Assembly (NCBI GenBank): GCA_964572155.1
Contig: CAZNDZ010000001.1
Location: 974,290-1,038,289, forward strand
Direction: 5' to 3'
Source of the DNA: an uncultured Planctomycetales bacterium
GTDB lineage: Bacteria; Omnitrophota; Gorgyraeia; Zapsychrales; Fredricksoniimonadaceae
DNA: 64,000 nt
Shown here: positions 19,000-59,782 of the stretch, piece after piece
Numbering within the stretch: the first letter of the stretch is position 1
How the letters are laid out: the number at the start of each line of letters is the position of its first letter
Made by a program: the position numbers and the translations under genes
Notes under the pieces: generated by a model
The model's input: the letters and a program-made list of their open reading frames with translations, nothing else
What the model was told of the DNA's origin: nothing
The model's database searches: none

Positions 19000-19644
19000 T
19001 TATAAGCCCATACGGTCGGTTAAGAATTCTTGCATGGATCGGCTGTTTAAATAGTGATTGGTGCGCAGTTGGTGGCCGATTGTATCCGTCGGGGTGGGGC
19101 CGTAGTTATGGCCGGGATAAACGATGGTCTCGGGGGGTAGTTTGGCAATCACGGTCGATAGGCTTTTGTACATGACTTTCGCGTCGCCCCCAGGTAGGTC
19201 GCATCGGCCGCATCCGTCGATAAATAAGGTGTCTCCGCTAATCAATTTGCCTTGAGCTAAGAATACTTGGCAACCTGGGGTGTGGCCAGGGGTGTGAAGG
19301 ACGTCGAAAACAATATTGCCAACAGTTAAGTTTGCTTTGTCGTCAATCGGGACTAAGTTCTTTAAGTTTTTGGTTAAGAAGGGGGCTTCATGTTTCGAAA
19401 TATACACAGGCATGTCTTTAAATGCTAATGCCTGAGGCAGGCCATTAACATGATCAGGATGAGCGTGGGTTAAAAAAACGCTTGTGATGTTATATTCGAG
19501 GCGTTTGGCTTCACTTAATAGAAAAGGCACGTCCCATGCTGGGTCCACCATTGTCATTTCCTTAGTCGATGGATCGCCTAAGAGATAAAGAAAGTTATTG
19601 AGTGGTCCGATTTCGTATTGCGCAATGAACAGTTGATTTTTCAT
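19000..19644 (-). CDS. MBL-fold metallo-hydrolase (glyoxalase II-like)
   Basis: THAHPDH motif (HxHxDH), downstream His/Asp ligands. Confidence 0.75.
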   Translation of the reverse strand: MKNQLFIAQYEIGPLNNFLYLLGDPSTKEMTMVDPAWDVPFLLSEAKRLEYNITSVFLTHAHPDHVNGLPQALAFKDMPVYISKHEAPFLTKNLKNLVPIDDKANLTVGNIVFDVLHTPGHTPGCQVFLAQGKLISGDTLFIDGCGRCDLPGGDAKVMYKSLSTVIAKLPPETIVYPGHNYGPTPTDTIGHQLRTNHYLNSRSMQEFLTDRMGL

Positions 19645-27527: not shown

Positions 27528-29195
<1,668 letters not shown>

Positions 29196-29202
29196 TTTGG
29201 AC

Positions 29203-29292
29203 GGAGAGGTGGCCGAGTGGTTGAAGGCGCACGCCTGGAAAGCGTGTGGACGTGAAAGCGTCTCGAGAGTTCGAATCTCTCCTTCTCCGCCA
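29203..29292 (+). tRNA. tRNA-Ser (anticodon GGA)
   Basis: GGAGAGG..CTTCTCC acceptor, long variable arm, anticodon loop CTGGAAA, GTTCGAATC T-loop, GCCA end; 7 nt after ABC-F stop. Confidence 0.85.
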
Positions 29293-29303
29293 GATTTTTC
29301 TCT

Positions 29304-29398
29304 AAGCGTTAGTTCACCAACCTGAAGGAGGGGAACTAACGCAATACTAGAGAAAAATCAAGGATGCCTGTGAGCCAACAGGCGAGTAGGCGCCGCCA
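29304..29398 (+). ncRNA. conserved structured element (copy 1): hairpin + conserved 3' module ending GGCGCCGCCA
   Basis: ~85% identical to 57674..57769 in the 3' 60 nt; 5' hairpin GCGTTAGTTC/GAACTAACGC covaries with the GCGATGAACTTTT/AAAAGTTTATCGC stem in copy 2. Confidence 0.45.
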
Positions 29399-29420
29399 GT
29401 CCCCGCACAGAGCATGGACA

Positions 29421-29438
29421 GACGAGTCGGCGCCGCCA
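29421..29438 (+). repeat. partial tandem reiteration of the element 3' motif (GACGAGTCGGCGCCGCCA)
   Basis: Near-duplicate of GGCGAGTAGGCGCCGCCA 23 nt downstream of copy 1. Confidence 0.4.
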
Positions 29439-29599
29439 GCCACGGATTAAGTCCCGCGCAAATACATTCATCATTTTTCCCTCTTAATAAATCATCTCCA
29501 ATTCTTTTACACACATCTATACTTTCTTAAAAAGTTAGTTATAGTAATAAATGGTATGGTTTTCATAAGATCAAAGATTTTAAGAAATAATAGAAAATT

Positions 29600-31672
29600 A
29601 TGACAAAACATTTTTGGCCCAAGCGATTTATGACTTGGCGGGATTTGATTATTACACCCGCAATTGAAGGGCTACTTTTTTTTATTTCTATCAAAGCTGG
29701 GCTTTATACCTATCGACAACGTCCTGATTTGTTTTTGGCTTTTATTGTTTCGTATGCAACGTTAATTTTCGGGACTGTCGTGGTATTGATAATTCTTCGC
29801 AGAATCGCTCCCGTGCGTGAAGGAAAATTTTCTCGTGAAGAGGAGCCGGGACGATTTTATGTTTGGAAACTGCATCAGTTTCTATCGCTGATTAATCTGT
29901 ACATTCACTATCAAAATAGTCTCTTACCGCCGCCAATTCGAAAATTTTTTAGCCGTCTTTTGGGAGCTAAAATGGGAAAAGGTTTGATTTCCATTGGTGG
30001 GCTGATGATAGATCCTTACCTTATTGAAGTTCAAGAAAATGCCATGATAGGGCGTGATGTTCTGATTTTGCCTTCAATATTAGATCAAAAAGAGCTCACG
30101 TTACGCCGCATTGTAGTTAAATCCGGGGCTGTTATAGGAGCGCGGTCCGTGCTTTTGCCAGGGGTCACGGTAGGAAAAAGTGCAATGGTAAAAGCAATGT
30201 CGTTAGTACCTGAGGGAACTGTCATTGGAGATTACGAAATTTGGGGAGGCATTCCAGCCCAAAAGATGGGTGAAATTCCAAGACCAGAAACTCCTGCAGA
30301 GCCAAGATTTGGGGCATGGCGGGACATGGTGATTAGTCCTTTGGTTGAACTGTTTTTATTAACGCTTTCAGGCTGGGGAGCATGGTGTGTGGTTAGTAAG
30401 TACGGTGGAGGACTTTTTGTAGCCATGCTTGCAGGGTATATATTCTTGGTAGCATCGACGATCATTTTTATTCGGATTTTGCAGGCAATTTATCCTTTTC
30501 GATCAGGAACCTTTTCTTTTGAAAAGCAACCTGAAGTTTGTTATTTATGGAATTTAAAAGAATTCTTATGCATTATGAATCTCTTTATCCATTACCAAAA
30601 TGGTCTTGTACCGTCTTCACTACAAAAGTTGTTTATGTGGCTTTTAGGAATGCCCTGGAAAACAAGAAACGGCTTACTCTCAGCGAGTGGGGTCATTACT
30701 GATCCGAGTCTTGTTGAATTAGAAGAGGGAGTTATTCTTCATCATGACGCTTTTCTTTTACCTCATGCGGTAGCAGTAGATTCCTTGGTGTTAAAAAAAA
30801 TTAGCATTAAACGCGGCGCTTTAATTGGTGCCCGTGCTATGATCATGCCTGGAGTGACGGTGGGTGAATACGCCCAGGTGTTACCGATGTCATTGGTTAC
30901 GATGGACAAAACGATTCCTTCTTACGAAATATGGGGCGGAGTTCCTGCCCGCAAAGTGGGAGAAGTTCCTCGGATGTCCAGAGAAGTCGAAGGATCCTAT
31001 AGTACAACAAATATTTGGGATCGGGTGATAACAATCGGCGTCGAAATCTTTTTAGGATTTCTGGCATGGCAGGGTATGAAGATTGTGGAAAAATTTCTTA
31101 CTCTTGACCTCTTTGGAAAAATATTAGTTCTTTATCTTCTTTTTAGTTTGGCAACTATTGTTGTACTGATGTTTATTCGAACCATTTTTCCTTTTTGGCA
31201 AGGAGTTTATCGACAAAAGGAATATCCTGCTATTTTTACAATATGGCGTTTGCACGCCTTCTTGTGTATAACCAACTTGTTTTTGTTTTATCAAAATGGG
31301 CTTTTGCCGCCTCCCTTGCGGAAATTTTTCATTATGCTCCTTGGAGCTCGGGTTAGGTTAAACGATGTGTTATCTATCGGAGGCATCGTCGCAGATCCTT
31401 ATTTCTTCTCGATTGACGACAATGCTATGATCTTAACCGATGTTTTGATTATGCCGGTTTGCATAGGTCAAGGTGAAATCCGATTGAAGAAAATTGAGTT
31501 ACGAGAAAGAGCTATTGTTTGTGAACGCGTTATACTCATGCCAGGGGTCAGGGTAGGGGAAGGGGCATATGTTATGCCAATGTCCTGGGTCCAGGAAGAT
31601 ACCAAAATTGGCCCTGGCGAAATTTGGGCAGGAATTCCCGCCCAAAAGGTTGGTATGGTTAATGAAAGCTAG
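29600..31672 (+). CDS. triplicated transmembrane hexapeptide-repeat (left-handed beta-helix) transferase-like protein; resembles the tandem C-terminal domains of Pls-type NRPS-like polymerases
   Basis: 690 aa made of three ~230-aa homologous units, each with 2 TM helices, an NL(Y/F)IHYQN(G/S)L(L/V)PxxxxK(F/L)F..LLG block, a GAR..PGV.VG hexapeptide block and a terminal EIWGG(I/V)PA(Q/R)K(V/M)G motif. Confidence 0.6.
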   Translation: MTKHFWPKRFMTWRDLIITPAIEGLLFFISIKAGLYTYRQRPDLFLAFIVSYATLIFGTVVVLIILRRIAPVREGKFSREEEPGRFYVWKLHQFLSLINLYIHYQNSLLPPPIRKFFSRLLGAKMGKGLISIGGLMIDPYLIEVQENAMIGRDVLILPSILDQKELTLRRIVVKSGAVIGARSVLLPGVTVGKSAMVKAMSLVPEGTVIGDYEIWGGIPAQKMGEIPRPETPAEPRFGAWRDMVISPLVELFLLTLSGWGAWCVVSKYGGGLFVAMLAGYIFLVASTIIFIRILQAIYPFRSGTFSFEKQPEVCYLWNLKEFLCIMNLFIHYQNGLVPSSLQKLFMWLLGMPWKTRNGLLSASGVITDPSLVELEEGVILHHDAFLLPHAVAVDSLVLKKISIKRGALIGARAMIMPGVTVGEYAQVLPMSLVTMDKTIPSYEIWGGVPARKVGEVPRMSREVEGSYSTTNIWDRVITIGVEIFLGFLAWQGMKIVEKFLTLDLFGKILVLYLLFSLATIVVLMFIRTIFPFWQGVYRQKEYPAIFTIWRLHAFLCITNLFLFYQNGLLPPPLRKFFIMLLGARVRLNDVLSIGGIVADPYFFSIDDNAMILTDVLIMPVCIGQGEIRLKKIELRERAIVCERVILMPGVRVGEGAYVMPMSWVQEDTKIGPGEIWAGIPAQKVGMVNES

Positions 31673-55786: not shown

Positions 55787-55871
55787 ATTATCCTCAAATT
55801 AAAACAGATGCTTTACACAGAACGTTAAATCTGTTATAAAAGACTTCTCTTCGGGCAAGATTTCTAAACCC

Positions 55872-55893
55872 TTCTCGGAGAGAATCTTTTTTT
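55872..55893 (+). terminator. weak Rho-independent terminator
   Basis: TTCTC-GGA-GAGAA + TCTTTTTTT. Confidence 0.35.
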
Positions 55894-55988
55894 GGAGAGG
55901 TGGCCAGCAAAGCTAGAAATAACACTGTGGAAGCTTGCACTACTTCACCAGTTTTTCTAGAATTTGATATAGTAATTTAGTTGTAACT

Positions 55989-56080
55989 GGAGAGGTGGCA
56001 GAGTGGCTGAATGCAATTGCCTGCTAAGCAATTGACCTGGGTAACTGGGTCCTCGGGTTCGAATCCCGACCTCTCCGCCA
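55989..56080 (+). tRNA. tRNA-Ser (anticodon GCT)
   Basis: GGAGAGG..CCTCTCC acceptor, anticodon loop CTGCTAA, long variable arm, GTTCGAATCC, GCCA. Confidence 0.85.
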
Positions 56081-56163
56081 TTTTATTAGGTGAACCGTCC
56101 GTCGAGGAGTGGGGCGGAAATCGCCCATACTAATTGTGGACGCGAACCCTGAGGAAAAAGATT

Positions 56164-56523
56164 ATGGCAGTAAAATTTAAAAAGCTTACACCGAATTTAA
56201 TTGTTTCTGAATTGGATGAACTGATTTCACCCGAACTGGTATTTACCAATCATCTCGGCCAAATTATGTCGAAGCAGGATGACCTTAGTGCGCACCGTTC
56301 CGGTTTTATAAAGAGCAGATCCATTGAACAGGCTGAGCAACAAGTTTTGTGTAAGGGGGACATTGCAATTGTTTCAGTCCTGTCACATATCGTTGGAGAG
56401 ATAGACGGTGTACGGTCTGATGCCGCTTTGCGTTATACGCGTATCTGGCGAAAAAGAAAGTTCGGGATATGGCAGGTCGTTGTTGCACATTCAATCTTGG
56501 TTAACAAAGGAAACTTATGCTGA
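56164..56523 (+). CDS. NTF2-like/SnoaL-like (DUF4440-type) small protein
   Basis: 119 aa from the ATG with SD GAGGAAAAAG; C-terminal YTRIWRKRKFGIWQVVVAHS pattern; elevated GC and CTG/CCG codons. Confidence 0.45.
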   Translation: MAVKFKKLTPNLIVSELDELISPELVFTNHLGQIMSKQDDLSAHRSGFIKSRSIEQAEQQVLCKGDIAIVSVLSHIVGEIDGVRSDAALRYTRIWRKRKFGIWQVVVAHSILVNKGNLC

Positions 56524-57446
56524 AAATATTTTGTTTGGCAGGCATATTTTTCCTGTTTGTTGCGCATGCGGCCTTGGCGCAAGGAGAATTAAAGGCGAAA
56601 ATTGAACGAATTATTTCTCCAGTGAAGGCGAAAGTTGGTGTTTCCATCCTGGCGATAGAAGATAAAGTGACCGTAAACGTTAATGGCGGAAAGCAATTCC
56701 CTATGCAGAGTGTTTTTAAATTTCCTATCGCCCTGGCTGTTCTGGGCGAAGTGGACAAAGGACGGTTTTCTCTGGAACAGGAGATCAATATACGTAAAAA
56801 CGATCTTCTGCCGGATACCTGGAGCCCAATTCGTGAGAAATATCCGGACGGTGTAAAAATGTCTTTGGCCGAGGTGATTAAATATACCGTGGCGGAAAGC
56901 GATAATAACGGATGTGATATTCTCTTGCGACTTCTTGGAGGTCCATCAACAGTTAATAATTATATACACAGCCTTGGCATCAAGGGGTTCTCTGTCCAGT
57001 TCAACGAAAAAGAAATGCATGAGAAATGGAGTGCCCAGTTTTCCAATTTGACAAATCCTGCGGCCGCCGCCGAATTGCTTAGGACTTTTTATGTAGGAAG
57101 CATTTTATCCCGGAAAAATTTTGATTTTCTTTGGAATGTTATGACGGAAACAAAGACAGGGAAGAACAGGATCAAAGGCCAGTTGCCAGAGGGGACTTCG
57201 GTTGCACATAAAACAGGGACGTCCGACACGAATGAGGAAGGCCTGACGGCTGCCGTCAACGATGTGGGCATCGTGACCTTGCCTGATGGTAAACATTTTG
57301 CCATTGCCGTATTTGTTTCAAATTCGAGAGAGGATATCATCACGAATGAAAAAGTTATAGCGGACGTTTCCCGGGCTGCATGGGATTATTTCGTGGAACG
57401 GAAGAATAACGGTTCGCTTTCGCTTCAAAATAGCGTGAATAAATAA
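56517..57446 (+). CDS. Ambler class A beta-lactamase, Bacteroidetes CepA/CblA/CfxA-like (subclass A2)
   Basis: SVFK (SxxK), SDN (AESDNNGCD), KTG (HKTGTSD), LPDGKHFAIAVFV; signal peptide; higher GC and codon usage unlike flanks. Confidence 0.9.
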   Translation: MLKIFCLAGIFFLFVAHAALAQGELKAKIERIISPVKAKVGVSILAIEDKVTVNVNGGKQFPMQSVFKFPIALAVLGEVDKGRFSLEQEINIRKNDLLPDTWSPIREKYPDGVKMSLAEVIKYTVAESDNNGCDILLRLLGGPSTVNNYIHSLGIKGFSVQFNEKEMHEKWSAQFSNLTNPAAAAELLRTFYVGSILSRKNFDFLWNVMTETKTGKNRIKGQLPEGTSVAHKTGTSDTNEEGLTAAVNDVGIVTLPDGKHFAIAVFVSNSREDIITNEKVIADVSRAAWDYFVERKNNGSLSLQNSVNK

Positions 57447-57673
57447 AAAGCATGGAGGGTTTTGAATTAAGCCGTTTTTGCAGGGATTCTTATAGAATTT
57501 AACCGTTTTTGTGATAAAACACCTTTTATATACGGTCGGGTATTGTCGATTGGCCCTCCTAAGGATATCAGTGCTCCCATACTACGTTTACGGTAGAGTT
57601 TTATAAGTAGCGGTATCTCAAGGGGTTGTAGGGTTCGCCTACCGTCTACAATTACCCGCCAGTTTCTTTCCAA

Positions 57674-57769
57674 AAGCGATGAACTTTTAACCCGAAGGGA
57701 AAAGTTTATCGCAATACTAGATGAAGAAACCAGGATGCCTACGAGCCAACAGGCGAGTAGGCGCCGCCA
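57674..57769 (+). ncRNA. conserved structured element (copy 2)
   Basis: See copy 1; hairpin GCGATGAACTTTT/AAAAGTTTATCGC then CAATACTAGA..AGGATGCCTACGAGCCAACAGGCGAGTAGGCGCCGCCA. Confidence 0.45.
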
Positions 57770-57773
57770 TCAT

Positions 57774-57822
57774 GGATCTAATCGCAAGTCATTGTAGGGT
57801 AATGGCTTGCGATTTTGTGTTT
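57774..57822 (+). repeat. direct-repeat element A (GGATCTAATCGCAAGTCA core + 8-bp hairpin + T-run)
   Basis: 18-nt core identical to 58601..58618; ATCGCAAG/CTTGCGAT stem followed by TTTGTGTTTG. Confidence 0.55.
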
Positions 57823-57930
57823 GTATTTGAAATTAATTGGTGCCCAAATGATTATTCTTCATTGTTGGAAATTTGATTAAAAGGATTTTTGTTGGTTCGG
57901 GTAATTAGAAAATGATATACTAAATAACTT

Positions 57931-58401
57931 ATGAAAGTTCCTCGCATCTACATTGATACATCTGTCATCGGTGGTTGTTTTGACGCTGAGTTTGCGAAGT
58001 GGTCTAATGGTTTGATGAAAGATTTTAGATTGGGGCATTTTAAACCGATCGTCTCAGATATTGTTACTGTTGAGTTGATTAAAGCGCCGGAACAAGTCAG
58101 AAAGAAATATGCTGAATTAATTGAAAACGGTGCTGAGAGAATTGAAGAAAATGAGAAGGTTGATCGACTTGTGCAAGTTTATAGTAAACGAAAGATTCTA
58201 AGTGAGAAGTTTACTAATGACATGATTCATATTGCATTGGCAACCGTATATGATGTTGATTTGGTGGTTAGTTGGAATTTTAAGCACATCGTGCATTTTG
58301 ACAAGATTAGACAGTTTAATGCAGTTAATAAGGAATTAGGACATAAACTTATCCAGATTCTTTCTCCTCGGGAGGTTACGAATTATGAAGAAGAAATTTG
58401 A
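57931..58401 (+). CDS. PIN-domain protein (putative toxin/RNase)
   Basis: N-terminal IYIDTSVIGG (PIN Asp motif), conserved acidic residues downstream; 156 aa. Confidence 0.6.
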   Translation: MKVPRIYIDTSVIGGCFDAEFAKWSNGLMKDFRLGHFKPIVSDIVTVELIKAPEQVRKKYAELIENGAERIEENEKVDRLVQVYSKRKILSEKFTNDMIHIALATVYDVDLVVSWNFKHIVHFDKIRQFNAVNKELGHKLIQILSPREVTNYEEEI

Positions 58402-58552
58402 TGCCGTTCAAATGGTAAGAGAAATACGTGATAATTTGTATAAGGAAACTAAACGGATGACCGGTAAAGAGCGTATTAATTTTTATCGTCAAAAAGCCAA
58501 AGAATTTTATGTAGAATTGGGTCTTAAAGAACCTGTAGCTAAGACTCGTTAA
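58385..58552 (+). CDS. small ORF (55 aa) overlapping PIN gene stop; putative cognate partner/antitoxin
   Basis: Not in ORF track (<60 aa); ATG at 58385 overlaps PIN stop by 17 nt in +1 frame; basic helical peptide MKKKFDAVQMVREIRDNLYKE.. Confidence 0.4.
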   Translation: MKKKFDAVQMVREIRDNLYKETKRMTGKERINFYRQKAKEFYVELGLKEPVAKTR

Positions 58553-58600
58553 TCGGTGCCCAAAAGGTGCCAATCTCAATCACAAACATCGGATTTTATC

Positions 58601-58652
58601 GGATCTAATCGCAAGTCAATCGTATATATTGGTTTGCGATTTTTCTTTTTTT
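58601..58652 (+). repeat. direct-repeat element B (GGATCTAATCGCAAGTCA core + hairpin + T-run)
   Basis: Matches element A; ATCGCAA/TTGCGAT stem + TTTTTCTTTTTTT. Confidence 0.55.
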
Positions 58653-58689
58653 GTTAGAATGGTTTTGTGCTTAAAGGGGGCCCAATATT

Positions 58690-58992
58690 ATGATAGACGT
58701 TGACACAAAAATTCAAATGTTTGCCGTGATCGCGGAGGCTCGCAGGGTGTTTCCTTTTAATGTGCCTGTTGCTTGCCATTGTGAAGGGCGATGTGATGAG
58801 TGTTTGTTTAAATTGCTTGAGTTGTTGGAGATTGATTTAGATAATTGGAATGATAGGTTAAAACGTGGTGAAATTCCTCGTTCGATAGATATTCAAGTTT
58901 TAGAGGGTTATTGTCGGGATGTTACTGAAGTCTTGATCAAGGATGGGTATCAGCTGTTGTCGTCAGGTTGGGTAAAGGGAGCTAATGTTTAA
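58690..58992 (+). CDS. small Cys-rich hypothetical protein (CxCx3Cx2C)
   Basis: 100 aa; CHCEGRCDEC cluster; stop overlaps class D beta-lactamase start. Confidence 0.35.
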   Translation: MIDVDTKIQMFAVIAEARRVFPFNVPVACHCEGRCDECLFKLLELLEIDLDNWNDRLKRGEIPRSIDIQVLEGYCRDVTEVLIKDGYQLLSSGWVKGANV

Positions 58993-59782
58993 ACGCCTAA
59001 CATTTATAACGGTATTGTTTATATACACATTCCTACCCATATCTTTGAAAGCTGAGGCCATAGATGCATCATTATTTCAGCCGTATCACGCGGCCATGGT
59101 TATTTATAATCGCACTTCTGGTGAGATGGTAGATATTAATCCTGAACTTGGACAGCGAAAATTAGCCCCGTGCTCAACGTTCAAAATTTATAATACTTTA
59201 ATTGGGCTTGAATTAGGGTTGCTTAAAGGGCCTGATGATCCTTGGTATACATGGGACGGAGTTGTTCGTGATATTGAGGGGTGGAATAAAGATTTAACGT
59301 TGCGTGAAGCATTTGCGGTTTCTGCGGTTCCAGCTTATCAGAATTTAGCACGGCAAATTGGCGAAACCCGAATGAAAGATTATATCAATCTCCTTAATTA
59401 TGGTTCACGGGACACTTCTTCCGGGATTGATGTTTTCTGGTTGCCACGTCCAAATACCATGCCGATTACTATTAGCGCACAAGAACAGGTGAGTTTGCTA
59501 AATCAACTGCTTGATCTGAAATTACCTTTTCATCAAGAAAATATTGCTATCTTAAAAGATGTGATGAAAGTGATGAGTACAGAAAAGGGAACCCTTTATG
59601 GTAAAACCGGGTCGGGAATGAATGCGGATGGAAAATGGAATTTGGGGTGGTTTGTTGGGTTTCTTGAAAGTGGCGGCACAACGTATGTTTTTGCATGTAA
59701 TATTACCAAGGGTAAAGAGCCATCAGGGAAGGTTGCCCGCGAAATTGTTAAAAATGTTTTTAAATCACAAGGTCTTTTATGA
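58985..59782 (+). CDS. class D (OXA-type) beta-lactamase
   Basis: Signal peptide; STFK, SAV, YGS(YGN-like), KTG, WFVG (WxxG) motifs in canonical order; 265 aa. Confidence 0.8.
   Translation: MFKRLTFITVLFIYTFLPISLKAEAIDASLFQPYHAAMVIYNRTSGEMVDINPELGQRKLAPCSTFKIYNTLIGLELGLLKGPDDPWYTWDGVVRDIEGWNKDLTLREAFAVSAVPAYQNLARQIGETRMKDYINLLNYGSRDTSSGIDVFWLPRPNTMPITISAQEQVSLLNQLLDLKLPFHQENIAILKDVMKVMSTEKGTLYGKTGSGMNADGKWNLGWFVGFLESGGTTYVFACNITKGKEPSGKVAREIVKNVFKSQGLL

Follow-up and report, generated by a model that had tools for sequence, protein, structure and literature searches.

Two tRNA-Ser genes of an Omnitrophota genome are followed by copies of a small structured repeat, which may be a minimal member, or a relic, of a system that inserts DNA at tRNA 3' ends. 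The genome belongs to an uncultured bacterium deposited under Planctomycetales and placed by GTDB in Omnitrophota; the stretch analysed (the window, 64,000 nt; contig CAZNDZ010000001.1 of GCA_964572155.1, positions 974,290 to 1,038,289) supplies the numbering for all window coordinates below. We call the repeat copies U1, U2 and U3. Our data show that they have defined boundaries, that their junction is common with a demonstrably mobile cassette carrying a class A beta-lactamase gene (bla), that their structure is conserved and that they are arranged in tandem. The reading we favour, at a probability of roughly 0.45, is that the U units are cargo-less mini-cassettes or relics of a tRNA-3'-end insertion system, in which the right end of a unit regenerates the target. 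Movement of the U units themselves is something we infer, and so are an acting enzyme and the form in which it would read its sites, as folded single strands or as duplex DNA.

The units and the tRNA genes that they follow are these (in sequence motifs a bar marks the breakpoint):

29203-29292, + strand: tRNA-Ser(GGA) (ARAGORN; RF00005, 58.4 bits), discriminator G at 29289, encoded CCA at 29290-29292
29293-29398, + strand: U1, full unit, 128.9 bits with R2, a covariance model built from U1 and U3 only
29293-29304/29348-29359, + strand: U1 outer stem, arms GATTTTTCTCTA/TAGAGAAAAATC
29306-29315/29333-29342, + strand: U1 inner hairpin with purine-rich loop, arms GCGTTAGTTC/GAACTAACGC
29343-29347, + strand: conserved AATAC of U1
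29362-29394, + strand: U1 3' hairpin GGAUGCCUGU...GUAGGCGCC, then G 29395 and CCA 29396-29398
29399-29438, + strand: U2, a 40-nt unit in which only the 3' hairpin module is repeated, with the end GGCGCCG|CCA
55989-56080, + strand: tRNA-Ser(GCT) (ARAGORN, Rfam), discriminator G at 56077, CCA at 56078-56080
57662-57769, + strand: U3, full unit (57659-57769 with the leading CCA at 57659-57661), 134 bits with R2
57662-57669/57723-57730, + strand: U3 outer stem, arms GTTTCTTT/GAAGAAAC
57676-57688/57700-57712, + strand: U3 inner hairpin, arms GCGATGAACTTTT/AAAAGTTTATCGC
57733-57765, + strand: U3 3' hairpin, then G 57766 and CCA 57767-57769

A 27-nt core, GAGCCAACAGGCGAGTAGGCGCCGCCA, occurs exactly twice in the window, at 29372-29398 and 57743-57769, with none expected from 100 shuffles, and its last 16 nt (CGAGTMGGCGCCGCCA) are found a third time at 29423-29438, within U2. 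Over the full length, 80 of 111 alignment columns are identical between U1 and U3 (MAFFT, 29290-29398 versus 57659-57769), which run in the same direction at a distance of 28,371 nt. Each full unit has three helices: an outer stem with a T-rich 5' arm and an A-rich 3' arm, an inner hairpin whose loop is purine-rich in both U1 and U3, and the 3' hairpin, the first two forming a nested double hairpin. The layout of the 3' hairpin is GGAUGCCU(GU/AC)-GA-GCC-AACA-GGC-GA-(GU)AGGCGCC, then G and CCA. U2 is a diverged second copy of this hairpin alone, in which, as read from the sequence, the TAGG of U1 is replaced by TCGG and the CCT of the other arm by CCG to match. An earlier note on this DNA had described two copies with a near-identical 3' module, a partial reiteration behind the first and a second copy behind the bla cassette that follows tRNA-Ser(GCT); all three observations hold, and the gene in between is indeed a class A beta-lactamase. 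The same note placed the start of the first copy 12 nt past tRNA-Ser(GGA). This has to be corrected: it overlooked the outer stem, which starts at the first base after CCA, so that the U element begins there.

All three units start at CCA and finish with ...GGCGCCG|CCA, which is the tRNA-Ser 3' end motif CCGCCA. Homology between U1 and U3 stops on the left at the tRNA end or the cassette end, and on the right at CCA, where the score of the flank alignment (26) is matched by 10 of 500 shuffles; homology past the right-hand CCA was considered and dropped on that ground. U1, U2, U3 and their 3' modules have only CCGCCA in common with the four tRNA genes of the window. Derivation of the 3' module from these genes (tRNA-Ser, tRNA-Arg) was likewise dropped, local alignment giving z ≤ 2.0 against all four. 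tRNA-Ser(GGA) and tRNA-Ser(GCT) are ancient paralogs, yet their flanks carry an identical 27-nt core, which requires copying between the loci, as opposed to vertical descent.

The position at which the U units start is also the breakpoint of the cassette, whose parts are the following:

56078-57658, + strand: DUF4440 + class A beta-lactamase cassette, CCATTTTATT...CAATTACCCG (Pfam; identity in contigs L011-L020)
56078-56163, + strand: left-end hairpin module
56164-56523, + strand: DUF4440 gene (Pfam)
56517-57446, + strand: bla gene (Pfam, class A)
about 57536-57658, + strand: right-end region, with terminal helix GGGTATTGT/ACAATTACCC

This 1.58-kb cassette is 99-100% identical in contigs L011-L020, which come from many independent samples, and contains no recombinase. 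Its breakpoints lie at 56075-56078 and 57658, on the same bases each time, while its flanks change: five different ones are seen on the left and six on the right. Besides the window it is found in at least five contexts, with the breakpoint at the CCG|CCA position where U starts. Four of the left flanks are mutually different tRNA 3' ends, each followed by CCA and the cassette (GACCTCTCCG in the window, CCTCCCTCTCCG in L016, CTGCCTCTCCG in L013, GTCCACCCCG in L014). The fifth, CCGTCCACGACTACCCG at L017 1-17, agrees at 14 of 17 positions with the right end of the cassette itself, CCGTCTACAATTACCCG, which indicates that the cassette sits there behind a related one, in a tandem array where right ends serve as new targets. 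The right end is always ...CAATTACCCG, followed by six unrelated sequences; the next bases are CCA in the window and L018 only, and not in L012, L013, L014 and L015. The junctions thus read CCG|CCA, CCG|TTT and CCG|TAT, and in the CCA-less contexts (L012, L014, L015) only CCG is common to cassette and target. From these junctions we conclude that the cassette brings its own CCA at the left end and has in common with its targets only CCG, plus CCA where the target encodes it.

The right flank in L018 shows homology to what natively follows tRNA-Ser(GGA) in L021, and the two align at an equal offset (score 32 versus 16.9 +/- 3.0, with 1 of 1000 shuffles as good). The cassette therefore inserts exactly between the discriminator G (G73) and the next base, and by the same result U3 adjoined tRNA-Ser(GCT) before bla was inserted. 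In L013 the first 48 nt of the left end (24-71, corresponding to window 56081-56128) carry 14 substitutions and the rest is unchanged; the left-end hairpin is kept with CCTTCC/GGAAGG instead of CCGTCC/GGGCGG. This variant suggests that cassette ends are separable modules, open to exchange, in which structure is conserved. By eye, both the U 3' module and the bla right end show a helix with G-CCA behind it. The earlier note had held the structured repeat to be distinct from an att-type one. That exclusion is not supported, as the copies are bounded by CCGCCA at the very position of the mobile cassette's breakpoint.

Several other features of the cassette may be mentioned. Its bla gene is distant from the plasmid TLA/VEB genes (62-74% over parts). 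In L014 the cassette is followed at 1612-1775 by a GC-rich non-coding unit of ∼165 nt within an inverted repeat AGAGGGATTTG/CAAATCCCTC, whose end is a 20-nt partial tRNA-Ser 3' end (AAATCCCTCCCTCTCCGCCA) identical to the tRNA end in L016. An open reading frame (ORF) of 62-99 aa on the - strand (57467-57673) runs over the cassette right end across the junction and is called as a gene in L011, L013, L016 and L017; since its N-terminus varies with the flank, the gene call is probably spurious. A resemblance between U and the interior or left end of the cassette was discarded, as the scores are inside the shuffle range, and neither the AACCC-GAGG-ATG resemblance nor an "ATACTA" motif common to U and the cassette is significant.

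Both full U units fold strongly in the sense of the tRNA genes (RNAfold, + strand: –49.5 and –43.2 kcal/mol for U1 and U3, z = –7.8 and –7.1, 0 of 200 shuffles as good) and less so on the opposite strand (z = –5.8 and –4.0). Where the 3' hairpins differ, GT versus AC, the pairs are G-U/U-G in U1 and A-U/C-G in U3, a pairing valid only in the tRNA sense. Run with filters off on the comparison loci, R2 detected a third, diverged homolog in another assembly, at L015 1581-1689 (36.8 bits, E ∼1e–7; noise elsewhere in the window is ≤15 bits), and a plain alignment of U3 with this flank gives z = 4.6 with 0 of 500 shuffles as good. The U-like sequence in L015 starts at the first base past the bla cassette right end and retains both hairpins, of which the inner one is flanked by A6 and T6 and resembles a bidirectional terminator (A6-stem-T6). 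Two covariance models with filters off found no further copies in the window or the comparison loci, where L015 provides 125 nt of flank and L017 14 nt.

For U1, U3 and the L015 homolog together, RNAalifold predicts 37 pairs, and at 15 of these both partners have changed. The fraction of cells that pair is 87%, versus 44-55% when partners are slid by 1-3 columns; the two-sided changes number 15 as against 1-5 after sliding, and none of 500 shuffles attains the observed values. This shows that the structure of U is kept across the three homologs; with only three sequences the statistics describe kept structure and are not a formal covariation test. The claim that the hairpin arms differ yet stay complementary is borne out (GCGTTAGTTC/GAACTAACGC versus GCGATGAACTTTT/AAAAGTTTATCGC), and the covariation proposed with it applies to both 5' stems, which are kept through many two-sided changes (15 pairs with L015). 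It does not extend to the 3' hairpin, which varies only by G-U. Kept pairing with free sequence, as in the left module, would be expected of a site or transcript element that is read by shape, and strict conservation, as in the right module, of a site that is read by sequence.

Two candidate transcription signals enclose the second locus:

55944-55973, + strand: promoter-like site 5' of tRNA-Ser(GCT) (TTCACC, 18 nt, TATAGT, with TG; consensus scan only)
57780-57814, + strand: intrinsic terminator (16-bp stem and T-run), 10 nt past U3, the only strong one in 55800-58000

The promoter-like site is the only one ahead of the cassette genes. The consensus scan found none between tRNA-Ser(GCT) and the DUF4440 start, and the sole one inside the cassette (56501-56530, 9/12) falls in the last part of DUF4440, shortly ahead of where bla begins. 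The terminator is probably the original one of the tRNA-Ser(GCT) transcription unit. None was detected between either tRNA-Ser gene and the end of the U units, nor any terminator-like site in 29000-29700; no T-run follows the U1 or U3 hairpins, which do not qualify as rho-independent terminators, and no sigma-70-like promoter was found between tRNA-Ser(GGA) and the end of U1/U2. With the sole promoter-like site before the tRNA gene and the terminator after U3, tRNA-Ser(GCT), cassette and U3 look like one transcription unit, judging from the consensus scan. Located between a tRNA gene and its terminator and having no promoter of their own, the U units would be read through from the tRNA promoter.

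We therefore return to the insertion reading and its possible working. The system would place new DNA directly behind the discriminator base of tRNA-Ser genes (...CCG|CCA), and the U units would be minimal members, or collapsed ends of larger members, of a family of inserting units. A unit would start with CCA and a T-rich stretch, continue with a left hairpin module in which the sequence is free and the pairing kept, and end on the right with a hairpin and G that recreate a tRNA-like 'helix-G|CCA'. The next unit could then insert behind the recreated site and arrays would build up, such as tRNA-Ser(GGA)|U1|U2, tRNA-Ser(GCT)|bla cassette|U3 and, in L017, related right end|bla. In the transcript the U hairpins probably have a further role, in processing or stabilisation. 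This predicts the empty-site junctions CTCTCCG|CCAGTTTCTTT, CTTCTCCG|CCAGCCACGG and CTCTCCG|CCATCATGG, and the circle or tandem junctions ACCCG|CCATTTTATT, GGCGCCG|CCAGATTTTT and GGCGCCG|CCAGTTTCTT.

A number of results weigh against it. Pfam domains of recombinases or transposases (Phage_integrase, Resolvase, Recombinase, transposase) are absent from 63 window ORFs, nearly all those of ≥110 aa that are not inside a longer ORF. The loci compared contain no presence/absence polymorphism of U, no empty site and no circle junction. The U 3' module and the bla right end have nothing in common beyond CCG, so that a single enzyme for the two would need to recognise shape, and the fold of the bla right end is not significant (z = –1.7). 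The end of the L015 homolog is not CCGCCA. A duplex circle of 105 bp is mechanically implausible, and U may have been carried in and not be self-moving. The tRNA-sense strand bias of U pairing fits a purely RNA role as well. Finally, U copies are missing from JGI metagenomes searched by DNA and from IMG/VR, and an exact degenerate 20-mer of the U core has five matches, none of them related, in a collection with one genome per species, from which the source species is evidently absent.

The five matches are in organisms unrelated to the window (Acidobacteriota, Propionibacteriaceae, Salinisphaera and others), only L003 fits the 27-nt core within five substitutions (4 mismatches), and we take them as chance. 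No U copies were found in phage records or plasmids, and a search of JGI metagenomes by the bla protein returned nothing. The additional copies of which the earlier note spoke thus come down to one diverged homolog, in L015, with none in the genome, metagenome, phage and plasmid searches. Rfam 15 reports four tRNAs only at the gathering threshold over the whole window and no U match. For both U regions at E ≤ 10 it gives far-sub-threshold chance matches or tRNA-driven ones (sX4, 33 versus 70 bits; miRNA models), so that the scan proposed for both copies places them in no family. RF00005 has no match on the U regions at E ≤ 10, and ARAGORN (default, -ps, -ps80) sees no tRNA-like gene in the U units or at the bla right end; with z = –1.7 the idea of a tRNA-like fold at that end was abandoned.

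Conservation in relatives, which the earlier note had put forward as a check, is not seen: three other Omnitrophota loci (L021, L022, L023) have no U after tRNA-Ser(GGA). They have in common with the window only the adjacency of an ABC-F gene and tRNA-Ser, which makes the absence weak evidence. Most assemblies break at tRNA-Ser genes; the contigs L030 and L031 end at or just before tRNA-Ser(GGA), and L032 and L033 are without a tRNA there. No orthologous tRNA-Ser(GCT) loci were reached, as the 180-aa neighbour has no close orthologs and the route through the gene of the extracytoplasmic function (ECF) sigma factor led to one contig, ending just short of the tRNA. A look-up of the gene after U1 returned the same genome only, and we found no description in the literature of such a system in Omnitrophota.

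The most serious alternative, possible although in our view unlikely, is that the 3' trailer of tRNA-Ser yields U as a structured RNA with a function, co-transcribed with the tRNA, and that its position at a cassette junction is incidental. It would be released at the tRNA CCA, end in its own acceptor-stem-like hairpin and GCCA, and serve in processing or stability, mimic a tRNA end or bind a protein as a small RNA; U has two GGA motifs, of which one lies in the apical loop and the other at the base of the 3' hairpin, and these may resemble CsrA sites. The strong and strand-biased fold (z = –7.8/–7.1 versus –5.8/–4.0), with G-U pairs in the U1 3' hairpin that form in the tRNA sense only, speaks for such an RNA, as do the 15 two-sided compensatory pairs in three homologs, the 27-nt invariant loop/stem beside a module whose structure is kept and whose sequence is free, the lack of a terminator between tRNA and U, and the L015 homolog with both hairpins. 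However, a native trailer leaves unexplained the second CCGCCA edge, U2 and the sharing between non-orthologous tRNA-Ser genes; the CCGCCA end is not kept in L015, Rfam gives no match even at E = 10, U is absent from all other collections searched and, as weak evidence, it is absent after tRNA-Ser(GGA) in L021, L022 and L023. The mobile-unit and RNA readings are compatible, provided that the units are transcribed and the hairpins function in the transcript. It is more difficult to see U1-U3 as decayed att scars (attR-side arms and core) of integrase islands, with hairpins that are leftover terminators without a role, and we regard this as improbable. The location at tRNA 3' ends, the same orientation and the tandem core repeats are all as such scars would have them, tRNA-Ser(GGA) is an island site in the relative L029 (with a large serine recombinase, among others), the L015 inner hairpin is terminator-like (A6-stem-T6), and tandem elements split by partial tRNAs and degenerate remnants have been described (bioRxiv 10.1101/2020.12.28.424599). 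Yet the repeat common with the tRNA comprises 6-7 nt (CCGCCA and G or T), where a partial tRNA would span tens of bases, the 3' module resembles none of the four tRNAs in the window (z ≤ 2.0), and no integrase fragment occurs among the scanned window ORFs. The U1 and U3 hairpins have no following T-run, it is unlikely that decay at two loci independently left the same 105-nt remnant, and neutral scars would not keep 26-37 pairs by compensation, nor a 27-nt identical core beside a scrambled module.

Two further explanations we reject as having almost nothing left to recommend them. The earlier note had allowed that the copies mark the ends of an old tRNA-Ser island, that is, attL and attR of one 28-kb element, for which U1 and U3 have the right form, being direct repeats in the same orientation. 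However, each copy follows its own, different tRNA-Ser gene (for U3, it did so before the bla insertion), GC content is uniform (0.36-0.43), and the genes of the interval are ordinary ones: sugar-nucleotide enzymes, SNF2, RecQ, cytochrome c and M16 peptidase, along with tRNA-Arg, a TadA-like deaminase and an ECF sigma factor, with no recombinase. A small peptide, MP(V/T)SQQASRRR..., could in principle be encoded by the 3' module from the ATG in GGATGCC, and an ATG-initiated frame does run through the core in both copies. However, the frames end differently just past CCA (29 versus 20 aa), the purine-rich AAGGA/CAGGA abuts the ATG and leaves no usable spacing, the sole substitutions (GT to AC) change the amino acid while improving the pairing, and the L015 homolog is without that ATG.

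A wider extension of the insertion reading, which we think quite unlikely, is that in some Omnitrophota and neighbouring bacteria tRNA genes may serve as a platform for cassettes, much as in an integron. Cassettes without promoters would insert exactly after the discriminator base of a tRNA-Ser-type acceptor end and be expressed from the tRNA promoter; each would end in a tRNA-acceptor-like structure that recreates the site, and recognition would be by folded single-strand shape and not by sequence. U1/U3 would then be the minimal cargo-less cassette, consisting of a left and a right hairpin, and DUF4440-bla the cargo-bearing unit.

The surroundings of the two loci can be described briefly. 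Wherever sequence reaches, an ABC-F gene is followed by tRNA-Ser(GGA) with a gap of 4 to ∼180 nt (window 27564-29292; L021, L022, L023, L031), and the other genes around the pair differ among loci. The ABC-F next to U1 has its best named homologs in Candidatus Omnitrophota. In the window the tRNA gene starts 7 nt past the ABC-F stop codon and may for that reason depend on a promoter inside or upstream of ABC-F. An Omnitrophota genome with an ABC-F 92% identical to that of the window (L029 11664-21632, same contig as L021) has an island after tRNA-Ser(GGA) that encodes an FRG-domain protein, a large serine recombinase, DUF2924, HTH_17, an SNF2-type helicase and an N6/N4 DNA methylase, which suggests that tRNA-Ser(GGA) is an integration hotspot. 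Partial copies of the tRNA 5' end (GGAGAGGTG...) are found upstream of tRNA-Ser in other Omnitrophota (L023 4640-4808, L031 4676-4740, L034 3686-3700); in L023 promoter-like stretches are repeated along with them, so that the 5' side, too, looks duplicated or targeted. Downstream of U3 (57931-59782) lie a PIN-domain gene and a candidate class D (OXA-like) beta-lactamase of transpeptidase fold (265 aa), and a metallo-beta-lactamase-fold protein is encoded at 19000-19644, making three beta-lactamase-type folds in 64 kb in all. Long ORFs are almost all on the + strand, GC skew is positive throughout and the cumulative skew climbs steadily, which would put the whole window on one replichore with strong gene-strand bias.

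If the insertion reading is true, tRNA gene ends in an uncultivated phylum are docking and expression sites for very small recombinase-less units, and a class A beta-lactamase unit stands, base-for-base identical, behind different tRNA genes in unrelated samples, which would give resistance genes a way to move that the known schemes of integrons and transposons do not cover. With sites that have only 3-7 bases in common, the question is which enzyme cuts exactly after the discriminator base. If U is instead a trailer RNA, it would represent a new family with a tRNA-end mimic. It should be noted, too, that to conclude from covariation to an RNA gene is unsafe, as modules of recombination sites and read-through cassettes can give the same signature.

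Known systems offer partial parallels. Prochlorococcus tycheposons are tRNA-targeting elements in which the direct repeat is a partial tRNA of ∼40 nt (bioRxiv 10.1101/2020.12.28.424599), and the ssrA islands of Dehalococcoides (PMC3146451) are an example of elements that target a tmRNA gene. Like these and the cis-mobilizable CIMEs, U and bla are inserted at tRNA 3' ends in one orientation, new insertions push older ones outward with a tRNA-end repeat between them, and recombinase-less cargo units and short remnants occur. In contrast to them, the repeated core in U and bla is only CCG(CCA), 3-7 nt, and not a partial tRNA of ∼20-40 nt; the breakpoint comes at once behind the discriminator base, the units are very small (40-108 nt, with 1.58 kb for bla), the ends are hairpins in which pairing rather than sequence is conserved, and no integrase was found in the window.

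Integron cassettes, too, are promoterless, stand behind one external promoter, include ORF-less forms and may carry beta-lactamases. Their attC sites resemble U and bla in that structure is conserved while sequence varies (87% of cells paired in U; also the L013 left end) and in a crossover with almost no identity. In attC, R'' (RYYYAAC) lies 5' and R' (GTTRRRY) 3' of an imperfect palindrome, with the boundary in G|TT. No RYYYAAC/GTTRRRY core sites are rightly arranged in U: the inner palindrome of U1 has GTTAG in its 5' arm and CTAAC in its 3' arm, the reverse of attC, and U3 has neither. No IntI was found in the window, the platform is a tRNA gene end and not attI, and the U units stand at two separate tRNA genes and not in one array. 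The palindrome-associated elements of the IS200/IS605 type (PATEs), which are non-autonomous derivatives of that family, have in common with U and bla the lack of terminal inverted repeats and of target duplication, subterminal hairpins, and a left end that abuts a short fixed external motif of the kind with which the right end finishes; very short cargo-less copies are shared with U. Hairpins and CCG at both positions are indeed present here. However, a 3-nt CCG cannot account for left flanks that are all tRNA 3' ends or (L017) a cassette right end, no TnpA/TnpB was seen in the window and the Rfam models of the associated RNAs are unmatched.

The 3'-trailer RNAs and minihelices of tRNAs, of which the 3' external transcribed spacer (3'ETS) of leuZ in E. 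coli and mascRNA are well-known cases, resemble U in lying behind a tRNA on the same transcript and in a stable helix followed by N-CCA at the 3' end. Unlike them, U is not tRNA-like by ARAGORN or RF00005, is duplicated at two non-orthologous tRNA genes and has sharp CCGCCA edges and a tandem partial copy. We therefore file U closest to the tRNA-targeting integrative elements with tandem accretion and integrase-less derivatives, as a member of none of the families compared.

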